Virus record (IMG/VR): IMGVR_UViG_2648501336_000002
Length of the DNA stretch: 41,928 bases
Reading direction: 5' to 3' (one strand)
Source: a virus
Lineage: Duplodnaviria; Heunggongvirae; Uroviricota; Caudoviricetes
Notes under the pieces: generated by a model
Seen by the model: the letters and a program-made list of their open reading frames with translations, nothing else
The model's database searches: none
Told to the model about the DNA's origin: nothing
Part shown: piece by piece, positions 1 to 12,655 of the stretch
Numbering within the stretch: position 1 is the stretch's first letter
Layout: each line of letters begins with the position of its first letter
Program-made: the position numbers and the translations under genes

Positions 1-819
1 ATGCTTGTTAAATTCAGAATAGATCGAAATACAATTACAAATAACAGCACAATTTTAAACGCTAATGACAATCATTTAATTTACTCAAACCTAAATGACA
101 CAGATATAAACTCAAAAATATTTGACGCTGTAAATGGTGAAATATCAGCAAAGAAACTAGCCGACGAACTATTTCCTGAAAACGAACCACACATTTTTAT
201 ATCTCATAGTAGCAAAGACGTAAATGTAGCAATAAGTCTAGCAAACACTCTTTATGCAAAATATAAGATAACATCTTTCATTGACTCCCAACTTTGGGGA
301 CATATTGACCACGCACTAAAGGAAATGCATAATCGATACTGCAAGATCCCCGGCTCATCTTATTACCACTATGATAAATCTAATAACCTACTATCTCATA
401 TGCACGCCATACTAAGTATGGCTTTAATGAGAGTAATGGATAACGCTGACAGCGTTATATTTATCGAATCCGGCAACTCAATTTACCAATATATGGGAGA
501 TACTACCATTGCTCCCCAAGAAGCAATTGAAAAAACATCTGAAACATTATCTCCATGGATATCCTCTGAGGTGAATTTTGCAAATACCTTAAGATTGAAA
601 GGCCATAAAGATAGAGAACAACCATTAATGGAAAGCACAGATTCATACTCTTTAAACAAGAGTAATATTAAAGCAGACTCCTTACCCAAAATAATACATG
701 AAGTCAACTTAAGTAAATTCATAGAGATAGACAACAAAAAATTCAAAGAGTCTTTATCATTAAATGAAACAAATCCAATAAAAACTTTAGATATGATTTA
801 CCAAATATATGCTCAATAG
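1..819 (+). CDS. TIR-like domain protein (bacterial TIR / ThsB-like); accessory gene, 5' end possibly cut by window edge
   Basis: 272-aa ORF, visibly AT-rich; motif HIFISHSSKD resembles the FISH-type beta-A motif of bacterial TIR domains, with conserved Glu candidates downstream (FIESGN, WISSE). No search run. Confidence 0.45.
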   Translation: MLVKFRIDRNTITNNSTILNANDNHLIYSNLNDTDINSKIFDAVNGEISAKKLADELFPENEPHIFISHSSKDVNVAISLANTLYAKYKITSFIDSQLWGHIDHALKEMHNRYCKIPGSSYYHYDKSNNLLSHMHAILSMALMRVMDNADSVIFIESGNSIYQYMGDTTIAPQEAIEKTSETLSPWISSEVNFANTLRLKGHKDREQPLMESTDSYSLNKSNIKADSLPKIIHEVNLSKFIEIDNKKFKESLSLNETNPIKTLDMIYQIYAQ

Positions 820-847
820 GTAGTTTTTATTTTTAGCATCTAATAAA

Positions 848-879
848 CCGTTGGCACATCATATACAACGTGCCAACGG
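848..879. terminator. 10-bp perfect inverted repeat hairpin after the TIR-like gene (possible bidirectional terminator)
   Basis: CCGTTGGCAC-12 nt-GTGCCAACGG; T-rich flank on the minus strand, weaker on the plus strand. Confidence 0.4.
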
Positions 880-1026
880 AACGAGTCAATTACAATTATT
901 TTATGGCAGGAAAAACTGACGAATCAATATCTGGTTCGGTTGCTGTATCAATACGGTTCAGCAACACCTAATATTTCTTCCATGCCGCCAGCAATGAGGT
1001 CTCCTCTGCCGCCACAATACCCAAAT

Positions 1027-1167
1027 CTACGGCATCCTGAAGCGGTGCAATATGCTCACCCTGATTTTATCTTCAAAAATCCGGTCGCATCCTGCACAGT
1101 TCAACGCATTACGTTGTAGATCGGTATTCTGGTCATTTGTTGATACGCGTACATAGCCAATAAGCAT
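1027..1167 (-). pseudogene. Serine DNA invertase (Gin/Pin/Cin/Hin family) N-terminal remnant, truncated after about 34 conserved codons
   Basis: Minus-strand ATG at 1167 translates to [34 protein letters not shown], a near-exact match to the conserved invertase N-terminus including the catalytic Ser; it then diverges and stops at codon 47 (TAG, 1029..1027). Confidence 0.7.
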
Positions 1168-1193
1168 GGTAGATCTCCCTGACAAAAGCAGGA

Positions 1194-1586
1194 ATGATGC
1201 CATTTGCTCGTTATTTCTGCATTTTCATAAACGTTGGTTTGGGAGAAGCGGCTAAAAGGAATGTAGGGACAGGGGCGAATCAGATACCTGATATGGGTAG
1301 CTTCACGCTTTCTGTTTCAGGTACTGGATATCAAAAATTACCATCAGGTTTTATTCTTCAGTGGGGTTCAATCGGCGCACCAGGCATTGCACAGGATGTG
1401 GTAACCCATTTTCCGATTGCATTTCCAAACCGATGTCTGCGTGTTTTGGTCTCACAAGACTACACACCAGATAGCGGGGCTGTTGGTTATATTGCCTGCG
1501 CAGGTTTTAGTTCCGACCCGGTTAAATTTATATCCAGAGCCGGTACTCCAGGTCTCGGCGCTTCATTTTTAGCGTTAGGCTGTTAA
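1194..1586 (+). CDS. Alternative tail-fibre C-terminal cassette (Sv'-like), promoterless, expressed only after inversion
   Basis: Tail-fibre-tip-like sequence; encodes NVGLGE at the crossover site, matching NLGLGE in the expressed tail-fibre gene. Confidence 0.55.
1222..1247. repeat. hix/gix-like recombination site (right boundary of invertible segment)
   Basis: TTTTCATAAACGTTGGTTTGGGAGAA; 20/26 identical to the reverse complement of the site at 3090..3115, with the AAACnnnGGTTT core typical of Hin/Gin-type crossover sites. Confidence 0.55.
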
Positions 1587-1607
1587 TTTAGCTATATGGA
1601 GTGAAAA

Positions 1608-2048
1608 ATGAATTACATATATTCCGCGACTACAAACTCTTTCTATCCACTGGAAATGAAAGAGGATTACACTCAAGCTGACTCATGGCCAGATGATGCT
1701 GTTGAAGTTGATGAGCAGGTGTATATTGAGTTTTCCGGATTACCGCCGGAAGGAAAAATCCGTATCGCTGGAGAAAATGGTTTTCCTGCATGGTCTGAAA
1801 TTCCACCACCAACACCTGAGGAACAGATTGCTGCAGCCGAACTGGAAAAGCAGCAACTGATTAATCAGGCCAACGATTATATGAACAGTAAACAATGGCC
1901 TGGTAAAGCGGCTATTGGTCGTCTGAAAGGTGAGGAACTGGCGCAATATAATCTGTGGCTGGATTATCTGGACGCACTGGAGCTGGTCGATACTTCCAGT
2001 GCGCCAGATATTGAATGGCCTACGCCTCCGGCAGTTCAGGCCAGATGA
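1608..2048 (+). CDS. Tail fibre assembly protein (alternative copy, U'-like)
   Basis: 146 aa, C-terminal region typical of tail-fibre assembly proteins (DYLDALELVDTSSAPDIEWPTPP); convergent with and overlapping the minus-strand copy. Confidence 0.65.
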   Translation: MNYIYSATTNSFYPLEMKEDYTQADSWPDDAVEVDEQVYIEFSGLPPEGKIRIAGENGFPAWSEIPPPTPEEQIAAAELEKQQLINQANDYMNSKQWPGKAAIGRLKGEELAQYNLWLDYLDALELVDTSSAPDIEWPTPPAVQAR

Positions 2049-2622
2049 CATCCGGCGCGGTGCTGGTATCTGTTGCCGTCACCGCGTCAATGTAATCCAG
2101 CACAGCGTTAAGCCGGGTTGTTTCTGCCTGCGTCAGTTTCCGCCCGGCCTGTAATTTCAGCTGAATCAGACTAATGGAAGCCATTGCTGCATCAATCAGT
2201 GACTGGCGCTGTGCTTCTGCCGCTTCTACTGCGGCACCGTGTTGTGCCTCAGAATCTGTCACCCATTTCTCACCATCCCATTTATCATATGTCGTTAACG
2301 GGACGATAGTGGTTGTATTTTCAGGGTAATCACCCGGAGCTGTGATTTCTTTTGCTTCTCCTGTTTCGGTGCTATAGATAATTTCACCGCGATGGTCTGG
2401 CATATATTCCCATGAGTTTAAATCTACTGAACGGCAGATTGCATAACCAGCCTTATATGTGCCAGGAGCATCTAAACAGGAATATGCCGGGATACCGACA
2501 CCAACGGCAAGATATTCATTTGAAGTGGAAATATATTCCCGTGTTTCACCATCATAGTTATAGACGGTAATATTCCCCGCCTTCGTGGCAATAAGTTCGC
2601 TATTTAATACGGCTTTATCCAT
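2020..2622 (-). CDS. Tail fibre assembly protein (U-like, currently expressed orientation)
   Basis: 200 aa immediately downstream of the tail-fibre gene; C-terminus LDYIDAVTATDTSTAPDVIWPELP parallels the plus-strand copy. Confidence 0.7.
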   Translation of the reverse strand: MDKAVLNSELIATKAGNITVYNYDGETREYISTSNEYLAVGVGIPAYSCLDAPGTYKAGYAICRSVDLNSWEYMPDHRGEIIYSTETGEAKEITAPGDYPENTTTIVPLTTYDKWDGEKWVTDSEAQHGAAVEAAEAQRQSLIDAAMASISLIQLKLQAGRKLTQAETTRLNAVLDYIDAVTATDTSTAPDVIWPELPEA

Positions 2623-3458
2623 TATGCAGCTCTCACGATATAGTTAAATGCAATATTTCGTGGACGGGTTTCGCTCCCACCTGTGTTACCAATACTCCCT
2701 CGTGTATGTAGCGTTGGTGATGGAATCAGAGTTCCTCCGGCATCGGCAGCATCAAGCCCCCGGCCTTGCGTATATGCTCTTCTGAAGATTGTCGCCAGTT
2801 CCCATTCCTCTTTTGAATCATACCCATCGTTGGCAACAACAATATGGCGGTGTTTTTCCAGCATCCCAGTCTGAATGCTCAATAAAGCACGTCCTGCATC
2901 AATACCACGCCCGTCATCCCATCCACGAATAAACTCACCACGGAGATCAGGTAGTTTCCCTGATGGATATGCTGTAGCAAGATGGGGATATTTCACCTTA
3001 TCAAAGGCAGCGCCGTTGCATTTCAGCCAGCCCGTTGGCGGGGTTGCGGAGGGCCACGGAACAGGCACACCAACAGGTAATGCAGAGCCTTCTCCCAAAC
3101 CAAGGTTTTCGAGAGCCGTTTTCACCGTGCCATCCGATTTGATATCACCAAACGGATTCTTGCGGCTCAGGTATTCAACAGCAAACCCCGATCCCAGCAA
3201 TTCAACAAAACCGGGCAGATCACCATTATCAAGCACATCCCGTTGCGTTTTATCACTTACAAACTGGGCCAGAGCTGCAGCAATAAAGCTGGCCTGCCGA
3301 ATAACCTTATTGACTTGCGCACTGGAGGCTTTCCCTGCTGTAAATCCGGATAAAAGCGCGGGCAACGCTTCCCATTCCTCCTGCGATATAACATTGGCAT
3401 TTCGATCCGTTGCAAACGCTTTAAAGTCATTTTTCGCCATCAGAGTAATACTCCCCAT
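2622..3458 (-). CDS. Tail fibre protein (constant N-terminal part plus variable C-terminus)
   Basis: 278 aa following the baseplate genes; contains the crossover site inside the codons for ALENLGLGE. Confidence 0.65.
3090..3115. repeat. hix/gix-like recombination site (left boundary, inside tail-fibre gene)
   Basis: TTCTCCCAAACCAAGGTTTTCGAGAG, an imperfect dyad with the AAACC-nn-GGTTT core. Confidence 0.55.
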
Positions 3459-4120
3459 GCTCCTACATCAAAACCACTGATGAATTCGTTATCCATATCA
3501 AAACCAAAAAATTTTGAGCCTTCCGATGGGGTTTCCACCGAAGGTGTTTCAATGCCACCCGCCCATACCCCGGCGGCTTTTACTGTGAGATACCCCTGTT
3601 TAATTGCCGCAATTAACTCACGCGATACATCTGAAATATCAGTATCAGGAAAGACCCAGACCGATATCGTCATGTCCTGGTTATCGACTATCTGCATTCG
3701 CAGCCCGGATCCTGCTGTTGCAGCGTCAAGAATTGCCGGAAGCGAATCATTCCGTCCATCCCAGTTATTAATCGCAATCTTCGCTTTAAGAATGACACGA
3801 TAAGTTTCATCGCTGAGGTACATGTATCCGGAATCAGGATCGTATGGTCCCTGCCATACCCCCTGATCATATCCAAGCCCGTCGGTATCCCAGCTGAAAT
3901 AGACACCTGAGATAGGCTGGCTGACAACACGGCTACGTCCGATCCACAATCCCAGAATGTCAAGTTGCACACCAACCGCAGAGTCAATATCAAATGCAGT
4001 AATCAGCCCTCTGGTGGCAGCCGCAACATCAATAAGCGGCCGGGTCATCAGATCAACATGCGCAAGAAATTTAGGTTTGGTGGCGTGGTAGTTCGTGATT
4101 AGTTCGGTGTATTTGCTCAT
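3440..4120 (-). CDS. Baseplate/tail protein (Mu gp48-like)
   Basis: 226 aa between the baseplate J-like gene and the tail fibre; synteny with Mu-type baseplate modules. Confidence 0.45.
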
Positions 4121-5316
4121 GACTCCACCGTTATAACGATATTTTCCGGGGTACAGGACGCAGATTCGTTGTATCTGATATCAATGTTTGATGACGACAA
4201 AACCCCCGGGGATTTCCCAATCGTCAGTTCCTGAATATCGTAATAGCGTGCATTCCCGCCACTCACCACGCCAAGATTCGCCGGTGAGTAAATGCGACTT
4301 AAAAGGACCGAATCACCAATCGTCAGACTATTGATATAGTCGGAAATAGCCTGCTGGATCTGCTGCCCTATCTGTGAGGTATAACCCGTAAAAACTTTTA
4401 ATTTAATCAGGGCATAAACAGGCACATCACTGGAACGCGAGAATTTGATTACATGGGGATTGCCGTATTTATCCGGAACCGTAACGGATGTTGTACCGTG
4501 AGTGGCTGTCCCCTGGCCTTTATTCCCTCTGATAGCCTGAGCAATATCCGTTACATCACCGCCATCCACAATTACAGCAACAGAGTGTGGCGGTAACCCG
4601 TTACCGTCCTCCGAACCAGTATCGTTTTCATAGAGTTTGTGGCGGGTTACACCGGTAACATTAGAAACAGCACCATCCAGTGCTTCAAATGGGGTTATTG
4701 ATGGCAACGCAACACTTTGCGACTGGCGGATACGTAACTCAGCGTCAGTTTCTGCCGGAGTGCCCACAGTAGCCGCAGCAGGATTAGTTACCGAAACCCA
4801 GCCACGGGTTGGCGTATTAATTTCAGTGATAGTTCCAGCCAGCGCCGCCACTGCACCACTGACGGAACATGTTGCGGTCACCATCACTGTACCATCCACG
4901 CCGACCACCACTGAAGCAGGCAAACGCCATATCACATTATTACTGTCTTTCACGCTGCCATTAATGATGGTTGTTCCGGCAGTTCCTGTAAGAAGCAAAT
5001 CAACCGTAGAATTCGTCGCGCCTTTACGTGAAATACCATTTATTTTCACGTTACTGGTCAGTGCGGCTCCATAGCCGGTTGCTGGTGAAAAACAGTTGTA
5101 GACAGTTATCGCCATATTATTGGCATCATGAATCGCCAGCGCCATCAGAGCCACCATCTGGCCGTCTTTGCTGTCCGGTTCGAGGTAGGCATCACTGCCA
5201 TAAATCTGCTGAAAATAGCTAATCAGGGTGCTGAGTATCGTCTGATAATCAGGCGCACTGATCCCCTCTGCGGTTACCTTTGCAGATAAACCGAGAGAAT
5301 CAAGGTTCAGAGCCAT
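4117..5316 (-). CDS. Baseplate J-like protein (Mu gp47-like)
   Basis: 399 aa; size and position in a gp45-gp46-gp47-gp48 order. Confidence 0.6.
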   Translation of the reverse strand: MALNLDSLGLSAKVTAEGISAPDYQTILSTLISYFQQIYGSDAYLEPDSKDGQMVALMALAIHDANNMAITVYNCFSPATGYGAALTSNVKINGISRKGATNSTVDLLLTGTAGTTIINGSVKDSNNVIWRLPASVVVGVDGTVMVTATCSVSGAVAALAGTITEINTPTRGWVSVTNPAAATVGTPAETDAELRIRQSQSVALPSITPFEALDGAVSNVTGVTRHKLYENDTGSEDGNGLPPHSVAVIVDGGDVTDIAQAIRGNKGQGTATHGTTSVTVPDKYGNPHVIKFSRSSDVPVYALIKLKVFTGYTSQIGQQIQQAISDYINSLTIGDSVLLSRIYSPANLGVVSGGNARYYDIQELTIGKSPGVLSSSNIDIRYNESASCTPENIVITVES

Positions 5317-5669
5317 TACGCCTCCGATGTAACAGTCGTTATTCCATAGAGAGTGTCGATTTCAGTGGAAAACCTGACACGTCGGGTCGTGGTATCCACC
5401 GTAGTATTGAAAGAGAGGATTGATTTAACGCCCCGCGTTTCGAGGATGCGCTTACGGATCGCCAGGTTGTAGGTTTCCGGCTTCTGCTTACCGAGTACGG
5501 ACTGGATCCACGGAGTCCCCTCGGTGGTGTCGAGAAACCATTGCCCATACCACAATTCGAATCGCGTTTTTACCGCCTGCGCCACGGCCTCCGGTGAGTT
5601 AATCAGCCAGGTGTCATCACCGCTGCCAAAGGTGTAATCGCCATCGGCGTCTTCACGTCTGTATCGCAT
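5316..5669 (-). CDS. Baseplate protein (Mu gp46 / W-like)
   Basis: 117 aa, translationally coupled to neighbours; synteny. Confidence 0.45.
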   Translation of the reverse strand: MRYRREDADGDYTFGSGDDTWLINSPEAVAQAVKTRFELWYGQWFLDTTEGTPWIQSVLGKQKPETYNLAIRKRILETRGVKSILSFNTTVDTTTRRVRFSTEIDTLYGITTVTSEA

Positions 5670-6442
5670 CAGTTTACCCCATCGGTATTGCTTCCACCGC
5701 GCTGAACACCGCCATGAGTGTGCGTATCATCGATTGGCTTGCCGTTAGCCTTAACGCTCCCCAAGAACTCAACAGCACCAGTGATTTTTGAAGCCACACC
5801 AGAAACAACAGACCCCACCATGCCCCCCATCCAGGTTAACAGGCCATGAATGGTTACTTTCTCAGAAAAATCAGCCAGAGGGGCAACCACATCAAGACCA
5901 CCCGGAGCGACAATTTTAATTTTCCTGGTGTCAGGATTAAGCTCAAAATAGGTGCTGCCGTCGTCACTACGCAACTGTGTGGCACTGGTATTAATACCGC
6001 TAATCTTCCTCGCCTGCGACTGGGGACCGACAATACAAAACGCATCCGATAAATCATGCATTCTGTCATCGACCGGCTCCTGTATCCCGCCACTCTGCCA
6101 CCAGAAATCAATACAACGATCGGCAAAAACGACAAGACACTCATCCCCGGCTTTTACCGGAAAAGTCAACGTACAGCCTCCGCCGCGCGGGAATACCACT
6201 GGTACATCCACCAGCAGCGGGTAATTTTTGGTTACGCGGTTGCCGTCGTTGTCGGTTTCAACCGAACGAATAGCAGGCTGCACAACCGCCGTCACCGCGT
6301 CAGGATCGAATGACTGAACGATGCCAGGCAAAGCGACGCGGATCTGGTTCTTTGTGGTTTCCCGCTCGGATTTGAATGTTTCGGCAAGGTCGCCGCTGCG
6401 GGTCTGGTCAGATACTGCCATTTTGTAGGCTCCAGAAAGCAA
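5669..6442 (-). CDS. Baseplate assembly / spike protein (Mu gp45 / V-like)
   Basis: 257 aa in the track, using a TTG at 6442; a more likely start is ATG at 6421 (MAVSDQT) with a GGAG Shine-Dalgarno upstream. Confidence 0.55.
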   Translation of the reverse strand: MLSGAYKMAVSDQTRSGDLAETFKSERETTKNQIRVALPGIVQSFDPDAVTAVVQPAIRSVETDNDGNRVTKNYPLLVDVPVVFPRGGGCTLTFPVKAGDECLVVFADRCIDFWWQSGGIQEPVDDRMHDLSDAFCIVGPQSQARKISGINTSATQLRSDDGSTYFELNPDTRKIKIVAPGGLDVVAPLADFSEKVTIHGLLTWMGGMVGSVVSGVASKITGAVEFLGSVKANGKPIDDTHTHGGVQRGGSNTDGVN

Positions 6443-6465
6443 AAAACCCGCCGGGTGGCGGGTTT
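6438..6465 (-). terminator. Rho-independent terminator after the accessory cassette
   Basis: Minus strand: AAACCCGCC-ACCC-GGCGGGTTT followed by a T-run; sits between the stop of the 131-aa gene (6483) and the baseplate V-like start. Confidence 0.6.
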
Positions 6466-12202: not shown

Positions 12203-12655
12203 TCAGCCCTGTTGCAGGCTCTGCGTCGTGCTGGTAAGGGGTGTAGGCAAAAAATTTCCCAGCGAATCGGCGACCACCCGCGCCACCAGCTGCAGCATGA
12301 CCAGCAAGTCAATATCATCAAACATCAGTTCGCCCTGGGTAAATACCGGCACCCATCTGTCCATATGACGCCGCGATACCACCGCAAGACAGGGATGAAT
12401 AATTGCATCGGTGTCATCTTCGGTCAGGGAAGACAGTTCCTCAGCGATACGCGGGAGCATGGTTTCAAACACCGGTTTTAACTGTTCGAATTTCACGGTG
12501 TCGATTTTGCCGTCAGCAGGCAAACGGGAGCGAATACTCCCGAAATCTGACATCATTCCTGCCAGCACCGGCAGAAGTTTGCGGGTCACTTTCAGCTGGT
12601 CAAAAACGCTGAGTTTTGCCGTGCGATATTTCACGCCTTTAATTTCGAATTCCAT
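12203..12655 (-). CDS. Tail assembly chaperone (G-like), with a probable -1 frameshift extension to 12015
   Basis: 150 aa directly upstream of the tape measure; slippery heptamer near its 3' end and an open -1 frame across the 156-nt gap. Confidence 0.6.
   Translation of the reverse strand: MEFEIKGVKYRTAKLSVFDQLKVTRKLLPVLAGMMSDFGSIRSRLPADGKIDTVKFEQLKPVFETMLPRIAEELSSLTEDDTDAIIHPCLAVVSRRHMDRWVPVFTQGELMFDDIDLLVMLQLVARVVADSLGNFLPTPLTSTTQSLQQG
12248..12254 (-). promoter_or_regulatory. Programmed -1 ribosomal frameshift slippery site (T_TTT_TTG)
   Basis: Zero-frame codons AAT TTT TTG; the -1 frame then reads AYTPYQHDAEPATGLTFNSL... for 77 codons to a TGA at 12017..12015. Confidence 0.5.

Follow-up and report, generated by a model that had tools for sequence, protein, structure and literature searches.

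Organisation of the tail-fibre locus

The DNA analysed here, hereafter the window, is the whole 41,928-nt stretch of IMG/VR virus record IMGVR_UViG_2648501336_000002, assigned to the Caudoviricetes. Its switch region (positions 1–3,500) contains an invertible tail-fibre segment of 1,868 bp, which lies between two crossover sites and adjoins the remnant of a gene encoding a Pin-type serine invertase. The layout of the fibre genes comprises a constant N-terminal part outside the segment and, inside it, two alternative C-termini with their cognate tail-fibre assembly (Tfa) chaperones, placed in opposite orientations. The constant part (3104..3458, minus strand), the equivalent of Sc, is the same in both natural forms of the locus, which are designated A (the orientation of the window) and B (the opposite orientation). 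The open reading frame (ORF) of the fibre extends over 2622..3458 and encodes 278 amino acids (aa) when read from the upstream ATG at 3458, while gene callers place the start at 3440, giving a product of 272 aa.

In the window, the fibre gene is joined to a variable C-terminal cassette of the collar type (2622..3101, minus strand; Pfam Collar PF07484, 2.5e-14), which in the B-form genomes is found as a detached 172-aa ORF adjoining the invertase remnant. It is followed by a predicted TfaE-like assembly chaperone of 200 aa (2020..2622, minus strand; Pfam Caudo_TAP, 4.1e-32), annotated as tfaE in related prophages. The other half of the segment contains an alternative gp53-like fibre C-terminus (1236..1586, plus strand; Pfam Gp53-like_C, 1.1e-15), which has no start codon, and an alternative chaperone of 146 aa (1608..2048, plus strand; Pfam Caudo_TAP, 5.9e-38). 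Both are predicted to be silent in the orientation of the window, and no promoter-like site was found on the plus strand upstream of the gp53-like cassette. The two chaperone genes are convergent, and their 3′ ends overlap by 29 nt (2020–2048). An inverted repeat of 18 nt (1958–1975 / 2084–2101, 83% complementary) is also present in their conserved C-terminal codons; it might serve in internal rearrangements, but the natural breakpoint lies elsewhere. Two further ORFs, one of 130 aa (ATG at 1194) and one of 58 aa (1203), were rejected as genes, being reading-frame artefacts of the cassette and the invertase remnant.

Inversion of the segment in silico leaves the fibre gene open in frame in both forms, with products of 272 aa (A) and 229 aa (B), and the 229-aa fusion protein is identical to a protein annotated in Escherichia coli KOr019. 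This bears out the earlier claim, made from the sequence of the window without database searches (the original prediction), that inversion would exchange the fibre C-terminus and its chaperone in frame. The segment is an invertible tail-fibre switch of the Pin/Gin/Hin type and, by analogy with such systems, would be expected to affect the host range.

Crossover sites

The left crossover site (1222..1247) is a pix-like sequence of 26 bp, TTTTCATAAACG TT GGTTTGGGAGAA, with the central dinucleotide at 1234–1235. The right pix-like site (3090..3115), also of 26 bp, reads TTCTCCCAAACC AA GGTTTTCGAGAG, with the central dinucleotide at 3102–3103, and the reverse complement of 3090–3115 is CTCTCGAAAACC TT GGTTTGGGAGAA. 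The sites thus read have the central TT in common, together with an inner half of 12 identical nt (14 nt altogether), and match at 20 of 26 positions overall. They lie in inverted orientation, have the 12-2-12 layout and carry the same non-palindromic dinucleotide (TT/AA on the top strand). A repeat search detected the same pair as an inverted repeat of 20 nt (1229–1248 / 3089–3108, 95% complementary). In this respect the search and the alignment agree with the original prediction, which had placed two 26-bp inverted sites with an identical 14-bp half at these positions. The peptide labels that it attached to them were exchanged, since NLGLGE is encoded by the expressed fibre gene on the minus strand and marks the right site, and NVGLGE is encoded by the silent plus-strand cassette and marks the left one.

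The motif AAACNNNGGTTT occurs five times in the window, against 0.39 occurrences expected, and the full right-hand 26-mer is unique in the window and is not expected by chance. Two occurrences of the motif, at 12467 and 20631, were examined as possible secondary sites and rejected: they show no similarity in the flanking half-sites, have incompatible cores and lie in unrelated genes. The repeats of the P segment of e14 have been printed as TTGGTTTGGGAGAAGG / CCTTCTCCCAAACCAA (PMC12529663). The inner halves of the sites described here agree with them at 16 of 16 positions (3088–3103) and 15 of 16 positions (1234–1249). The left site is identical to the site beside the intact pinE gene in E. coli Rb-50 and QML220601 and is collinear, base for base, with gixR of phage Mu; both sites resemble hixL of Salmonella.

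Truncation of the invertase gene

A tblastn search with the intact PinE of a related prophage matched residues 1–35 only (1167–1063, 94% identity, E = 3e-18) and revealed no second invertase in the whole window. At the DNA level, homology with intact pinE and Mu gin extends no further than 1061. According to tblastn, the pinE and gin alignments, Pfam and the Gin structures, the stub (1061..1167, minus strand) corresponds to pin codons 1–35 plus 2 nt and includes the motif of the catalytic serine, VRVST. It covers profile positions 2–40 of 145 of Pfam Resolvase and is equivalent to residues 1–36 of the 193 residues of Gin (PDB 4m6f/3uj3). Nothing remains of the E-helix, the DNA-binding domain or the rest of the catalytic domain, about 150 of about 185 codons being gone, and no complete serine invertase (~185–195 aa) is found next to the segment. 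The frame of the stub runs on to give a peptide of 46 aa ending at 1027.

Beyond the cut lies a C-terminal fragment of a tail-fibre assembly gene (tfa′; 896..1057, minus strand), a pseudogene with an internal stop that is annotated as such in KOr019. The fragment represents the last ~54 codons of tfa and is joined out of frame to nucleotide 107 of pin. At this position of the same chromosomal locus, E. coli Rb-50 possesses an intact pinE of 555 bp. Judging from these alignments, the invertase gene is cut once and cleanly at nucleotide 107 by the fusion to tfa, with no erosion by point mutations. The earlier description of a decayed invertase with about 34 retained codons is accurate in its extent, as codons 1–35 are kept according to both tblastn and the Gin alignment, but the word "decayed" does not suit a single clean cut. 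Positions 896–1060 were also considered as a frameshifted part of the invertase; this was rejected, as they correspond to the tfa fragment and tblastn with Pin matches nothing there.

Both orientations on the truncated allele

The loci compared came from 5,426 complete E. coli genomes and from public assemblies encoding the exact ThsB-like protein of the cargo gene located beyond the tfa fragment in the window. Three of the complete genomes (KOr019, CP091665; P4, CP072688; and FP4) carry the stub, the tfa fragment and the ThsB flank with 100% identity over 751 nt and have the segment inverted (form B). The look-up of the exact ThsB protein yielded ten further assemblies with the same chromosomal locus, in which window positions 1–1248 are present at ≥99.9% identity; six of them have form A and four have form B. 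All of the assemblies used are complete genomes or Mb-scale contigs. The truncated A and B forms differ by 0–2 real single-nucleotide polymorphisms (SNPs) in the 1.88-kb segment and by none in 3.7 kb of baseplate genes. The closest relatives with intact pin diverge by ~1% or more in the segment, and the 5,426 complete genomes yielded no near-identical prophage in which pin is intact.

When the 1,868 bp between 1234|1235 and 3102|3103 are inverted in silico, the result matches the locus of E. coli P4 along 6,819 nt; the single mismatch is a SNP at position 72 that only the window has. The outer half-sites are asymmetric (G at 1233 and C at the corresponding position 3104), and this difference stays with the flanks in the B forms; therefore, the exchange is confined to 1234–1248 / 3089–3103, that is, to 15 bp that include the central dinucleotide. 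In a neighbour-joining tree of 12.8-kb loci comprising the flank and the prophage, A and B forms are interspersed: L011_A is the sister of L014_B, and L015_A is the sister of L013_B. Fitch parsimony on this tree requires three changes of orientation. The original prediction left two outcomes, an invertase supplied in trans or a locked segment. The presence of the same truncated allele in both orientations among near-identical prophages favours flipping in trans, and at the level of the lineage it contradicts the locked state.

One B-form assembly shows a distinct pattern. The constant part of its fibre gene and its baseplate genes (L012:9089-12464, equivalent to window 3089–6464) are 97.4% identical to the window, against 99.9% for its stub and cargo, which points to a mosaic prophage resulting from recombination within the tail module.

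Putative Fis-dependent enhancer in the retained stub

Part of the stub, GTATCAACAAATGAC ... ATCTACAACGTAATG ... GTGCAGGATGCGACC (1083..1146), shows homology to the Fis-dependent recombinational enhancer of hin and gin; it is collinear with Mu gin and the hixL-hin locus and represents a putative enhancer. The enhancer of hin is 65 bp long, has a Fis site at each end and an AT-rich central ATTTA/TAATG, and is located ~100 bp from hixL (PMC3798978). For comparison, the authentic Salmonella hixL-hin locus was fetched by an exact pattern search and aligned with the stub; its enhancer reads ...GTGTCAACAATTGAC...ATTTACAGCGTAATG...GTGCAAATTGTGACC... and lies within hin codons 7–28. The homologous 64 bp of the window (1146–1083) are 98% identical to intact pinE and near-identical to Mu gin. 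They are situated wholly inside the retained 107 nt, the cut being 21 nt past the distal Fis-like motif. The possibility raised in the original prediction, that a Fis-dependent enhancer survives in the 5′ region of the invertase gene, is in this sense supported at the level of sequence.

The G-N13-C motifs, assigned in the window to 1132–1146 and 1083–1097, have a start-to-start offset of 49 nt both in the stub and in the hin locus. The Fis sites of such enhancers are 48 bp apart centre to centre, and the 15-mers assigned here may be off by one; the homology proposed is that of the whole enhancer stretch rather than of the exact Fis 15-mers. The centre-to-centre distance between the left site and the proximal Fis-like motif is 95.5 bp in the window (1139 versus 1234.5) and 105.5 bp in the hin locus (L019, 3268 versus 3373.5). 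The former is one helical turn shorter, so that the helical phasing is preserved. It seems that the cis requirements of Fis-activated inversion survive in the sequence of the locus, with Fis binding and enhancer activity suggested by homology. A complete deletion of pinE locks the P segment of e14 in spite of the presence of PinQ and PinR (PMC12529663). This lock is compatible with a requirement for an enhancer in cis, a reading that is not the one given by the authors of that study.

In the lineages that bear the junction between pin and tfa, the stub is 93.5–96.3% identical and the abutting tfa fragment 69–86%. The higher conservation of the stub fits either a constraint acting on it or its repeated conversion by intact pin genes. 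Because the cut lies only 21 nt past the distal Fis-like motif and the stub is better conserved than tfa′, we tentatively suggest, without regarding it as the likelier case, that the stub has been kept for its cis Fis enhancer, and that the phage shed its invertase for defence cargo while retaining two sites and an enhancer with which to borrow invertases. If this were true, the switching of host range would be conditional on the prophages or plasmids co-resident in the cell.

History of the junction

The pin(nt 107)::tfa′ junction is found at the same nucleotide in the prophages of E. coli A34 and 2012C-4221 (L005:4953-5212 and L007:3976-4244), and it occurs in 5 of the 5,426 complete genomes. 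It is associated with three cargos, namely the ThsB-like gene in the window, catalase and ferritin-like genes in A34, and appY and ompT in 2012C-4221. Besides, a lambdoid prophage of strain UMB200201_11 has a ThsB homologue together with the same tfa′ fragment behind its fibre gene. The sharing of one junction by different cargos and the ThsB/tfa′ pair of the lambdoid prophage argue, from sequence comparison, that the junction predates the ThsB cargo. In cargo exchange, tfa′ seems to provide the anchor of homology. In the window the fragment has a mosaic appearance, with positions 924–1059 resembling A34 (93%) and positions 1–999 resembling UMB200201_11 (83%).

A related observation was made for vB_EcoM-611R5 (ON470588, L021:3297-3611), which belongs to the same prophage family. 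At its yfhH-side end the gene of a "DNA invertase" has been cut independently, to 315 bp, and another cargo gene, hypothetical and 846 bp long, comes after it. Cargo turnover at the yfhH-side end of these prophages seems to damage pin repeatedly.

Source of the invertase and alternative explanations

It is very probable that the locus is an orphan Pin-type tail-fibre switch that continues to be inverted by an enzyme of the Pin family whose gene lies elsewhere in the cell. The fibre gene would be transcribed on the minus strand from 3440/3458 through its constant part into the right crossover site, so that the C-terminus and chaperone behind this site would be expressed and the other cassette would remain promoterless. 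Strand exchange by a serine invertase at 1234–35 and 3102–03 would flip the 1,868 bp and put, in frame, the gp53-like tip and the 146-aa chaperone in place of the collar-type tip and its TfaE-like chaperone. The switch would have been orphaned when its own invertase was cut at nucleotide 107 by the tfa fusion, with the defence cargo beyond. A Pin-family invertase from another prophage or a plasmid would then act in trans on the intact sites, most likely aided by Fis bound to the enhancer inside the 107-nt stub. The anatomy of the locus, the truncation, the in-frame exchange of cassettes, the two natural orientations on one truncated allele and the confinement of the exchange to 15 bp are observed directly; we infer which enzyme acts in trans, that it makes use of Fis and the enhancer, and how often switching occurs.

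Such cross-action has precedents. PinQ, PinR and PinE all invert the P segment of e14, Fin works on the Salmonella H segment, and PinE works on this segment as well as on the G segment of Mu (PMC12529663). Of the 5,426 complete E. coli genomes, 86–93% contain Pin-family-like DNA, the median being 2–3 places per genome; these figures, obtained with chimeric BLAST queries, count places of similarity. The search for host invertases that the original prediction proposed, run on the chromosomes of KOr019, P4 and FP4, gave a divided result: each chromosome has one extra place, similar to the 3′ 448 nt of pinE (its 3′ four-fifths), and no pinR/pinQ-like DNA was found on them with the chimeric queries.

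The latter absence is one of several points that weigh against the proposed trans-acting switch. The 5′ end of the extra PinE-like place does not match the 5′ 65 nt of the stub, and the three places, recognised by their 3′ similarity, are candidate loci only. The host of the window itself is known only through this prophage, so the trans-acting invertase there is presumed. Enhancer activity is proposed from homology. The evidence on orientation comes from comparisons between assemblies, at the level of the lineage. The number of independent flips, at least two, is approximate, the host flanks being recombinant with homoplasies.

The loss of about 150 of ~185 codons, the lack of any other invertase in the window and the single orientation to which the e14 P segment is confined in K-12 after pinE deletion (PMC12529663) could all suggest a fossil, in which the orientation became fixed after the loss of the invertase and only the collar-type fibre is made. 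This is very unlikely and is already contradicted at the level of the lineage: the truncated allele occurs in both orientations in near-identical prophages interspersed on the tree of flanks, and both the silent cassette and its chaperone gene have kept their reading frames intact, the forms differing by 0–2 SNPs. Polymorphism of orientation could also have arisen with no flip since the truncation, if homologous recombination (through transduction, for instance) had carried the block of stub, tfa′ and cargo into yfhL/yfhH prophages that had been flipped beforehand by their own intact Pin. Relatives with intact pinE do exist at the same locus (Rb-50), the host flanks are recombinant, and cargo is exchanged often at this end, as seen from the three cargos behind one junction and the independent 315-bp truncation of vB_EcoM-611R5. 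The recipients, however, would have to be essentially identical to the donor, with 0–2 SNPs in the segment and none in 3.7 kb of baseplate genes, while the nearest intact-pin relatives among the 5,426 genomes differ by ~1% or more and no near-identical one was found. Block recombination into pre-flipped prophages is therefore unlikely.

The two orientations might, finally, reflect RecA-dependent recombination between short inverted repeats or an artefact of assembly, and we regard this as extremely improbable. Any inverted repeat can recombine in principle, and the exchange is resolved only to 15 bp. Yet the identity of the repeats extends over just 15–20 bp, which is below the usual minimal length for efficient pairing by RecA, and the longer inverted homologies at the 3′ ends of the chaperone genes are not the breakpoints observed. 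The breakpoints fall instead at canonical pix sites of 26 bp, the same as are cut in e14 (PMC12529663). As to an artefact, the assemblies are complete or of Mb-scale contiguity, and a sequencing read would span a repeat of 20 bp. A shufflon or tyrosine-recombinase mechanism was rejected. A shufflon of the R64 type, with the Rci tyrosine recombinase and several 19-bp sfx repeats, does not correspond to a locus with one site pair only, and the sole tyrosine recombinase of the prophage is its integrase, 37 kb away.

Invertible fibre segments, trans-complementation and the Fis enhancer have long been known. What is new in the orphan switch is a natural lineage of an apparently complete prophage that is invertase-less and yet polymorphic for orientation. 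A full-length prophage would have lost its invertase through an exchange of cargo and yet gone on switching. The ratio of orientations of about 6:4 among near-identical copies would constitute natural, genome-scale evidence for a shared pool of Pin-family invertases, and a "recombinase pseudogene" beside a fibre gene should not be read as a dead switch. The prediction of host range and the typing of prophages of this lineage must weigh both fibre forms, which also matter for questions of superinfection after the 2025 work on PinQ and e14. The lineage offers a clean natural substrate for asking whether the cis enhancer is needed for inversion in trans in vivo.

Prophage context and flanking cargo

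The switch region lies at one end of a myovirus-like prophage of ~42 kb, inserted between yfhL and yfhH in E. coli. Over its full length the window is 99.96% identical to the prophage of E. coli KOr019. The latter has its integrase gene at the far end and also contains a lysis cassette and genes for replication, terminase, head, contractile tail and baseplate; the prophage further encodes a DNA polymerase and a VapE-type primase. On the baseplate side, a gene for a DUF2612 wedge protein (4120–3440, minus strand) immediately precedes the fibre gene.

The opposite side of the switch is occupied by the predicted cargo gene, which is not part of the switch. It encodes a ThsB-like protein of 272 aa with a TIR domain (1..819, plus strand, ~31–37% GC; PADLOC ThsB, 7.7e-43), for which a profile search gave zero Pfam matches. 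The gene takes the place of the 3′ part of pin and of the downstream DNA in relatives. A strong hairpin terminator with a 14-bp stem followed by a run of T (848..879, minus strand) is predicted between the tfa fragment and the convergent cargo gene. Outside the window, the KOr019 prophage encodes a 152-aa protein upstream of the ThsB-like gene (L004:43725-44183), which matches the candidate-system model PDC-M50A of PADLOC (3.7e-26). The two genes look like a candidate two-gene defence cassette rather than a canonical ThsA/ThsB Thoeris system. The same gene pair, with ~84% identity, is located behind the lambdoid fibre gene of strain UMB200201_11, beside a retron.

Comparison with known invertible systems

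By the sequence of its sites, the switch belongs with the P segment of e14 and, more broadly, with the Gin/Cin/Hin/Pin systems, but it lacks a resident intact invertase. The inner half-sites are the same as in e14, and so is the gene order, with a constant fibre part, an invertible segment containing two tips and two Tfa chaperones, and then pin. The segments are of similar size (1,868 bp here and 1,797 bp in e14), the stub has 94% protein identity to the PinE type, and the e14 P segment is also flipped by PinQ and PinR of other prophages. Unlike e14, where PinE is encoded beside the segment, the present locus retains 35 codons of the invertase, which would make the switch wholly dependent on foreign enzymes. 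It resides in an apparently complete 42-kb prophage with a full set of virion genes, whereas e14 is a cryptic remnant of 15 kb, and its cassettes are distinct, being of the collar and gp53-like types.

The arrangement is also collinear with the S-U-U′-S′-invertase order of the Mu G segment with Gin and of the P1 C segment with Cin, and it would follow the same logic of changing the host range by exchanging the fibre tip. The alignment of the left site and the stub with gixR and the start of gin is base for base and takes in the two putative Fis sites. In Mu, by contrast, the G segment is 3 kb long, the fibre is much longer, and gin is intact and autonomous. The phage described here is not transposable and possesses an integrase, a DNA polymerase and a VapE-type primase. 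With the Salmonella H segment and Hin it shares the 26-bp sites of the 12-2-12 type. The enhancer of that system is located in the first ~100 nt of the invertase gene, and the homologous 64 bp are kept in the window as a putative enhancer, with an equal G-N13-C offset of 49 nt. Hin differs in flipping a flagellin promoter, not coding cassettes, and in being present at its locus.

The closest functional parallels are the cases of cross-action, in which the invertase of one prophage flips another element, as Fin of Fels-2 does with the H segment and PinQ and PinR do with the e14 P segment (PMC12529663). In those cases the target keeps an invertase of its own, Hin or PinE; in the prophage lineage described here, action in trans would be obligatory rather than redundant.

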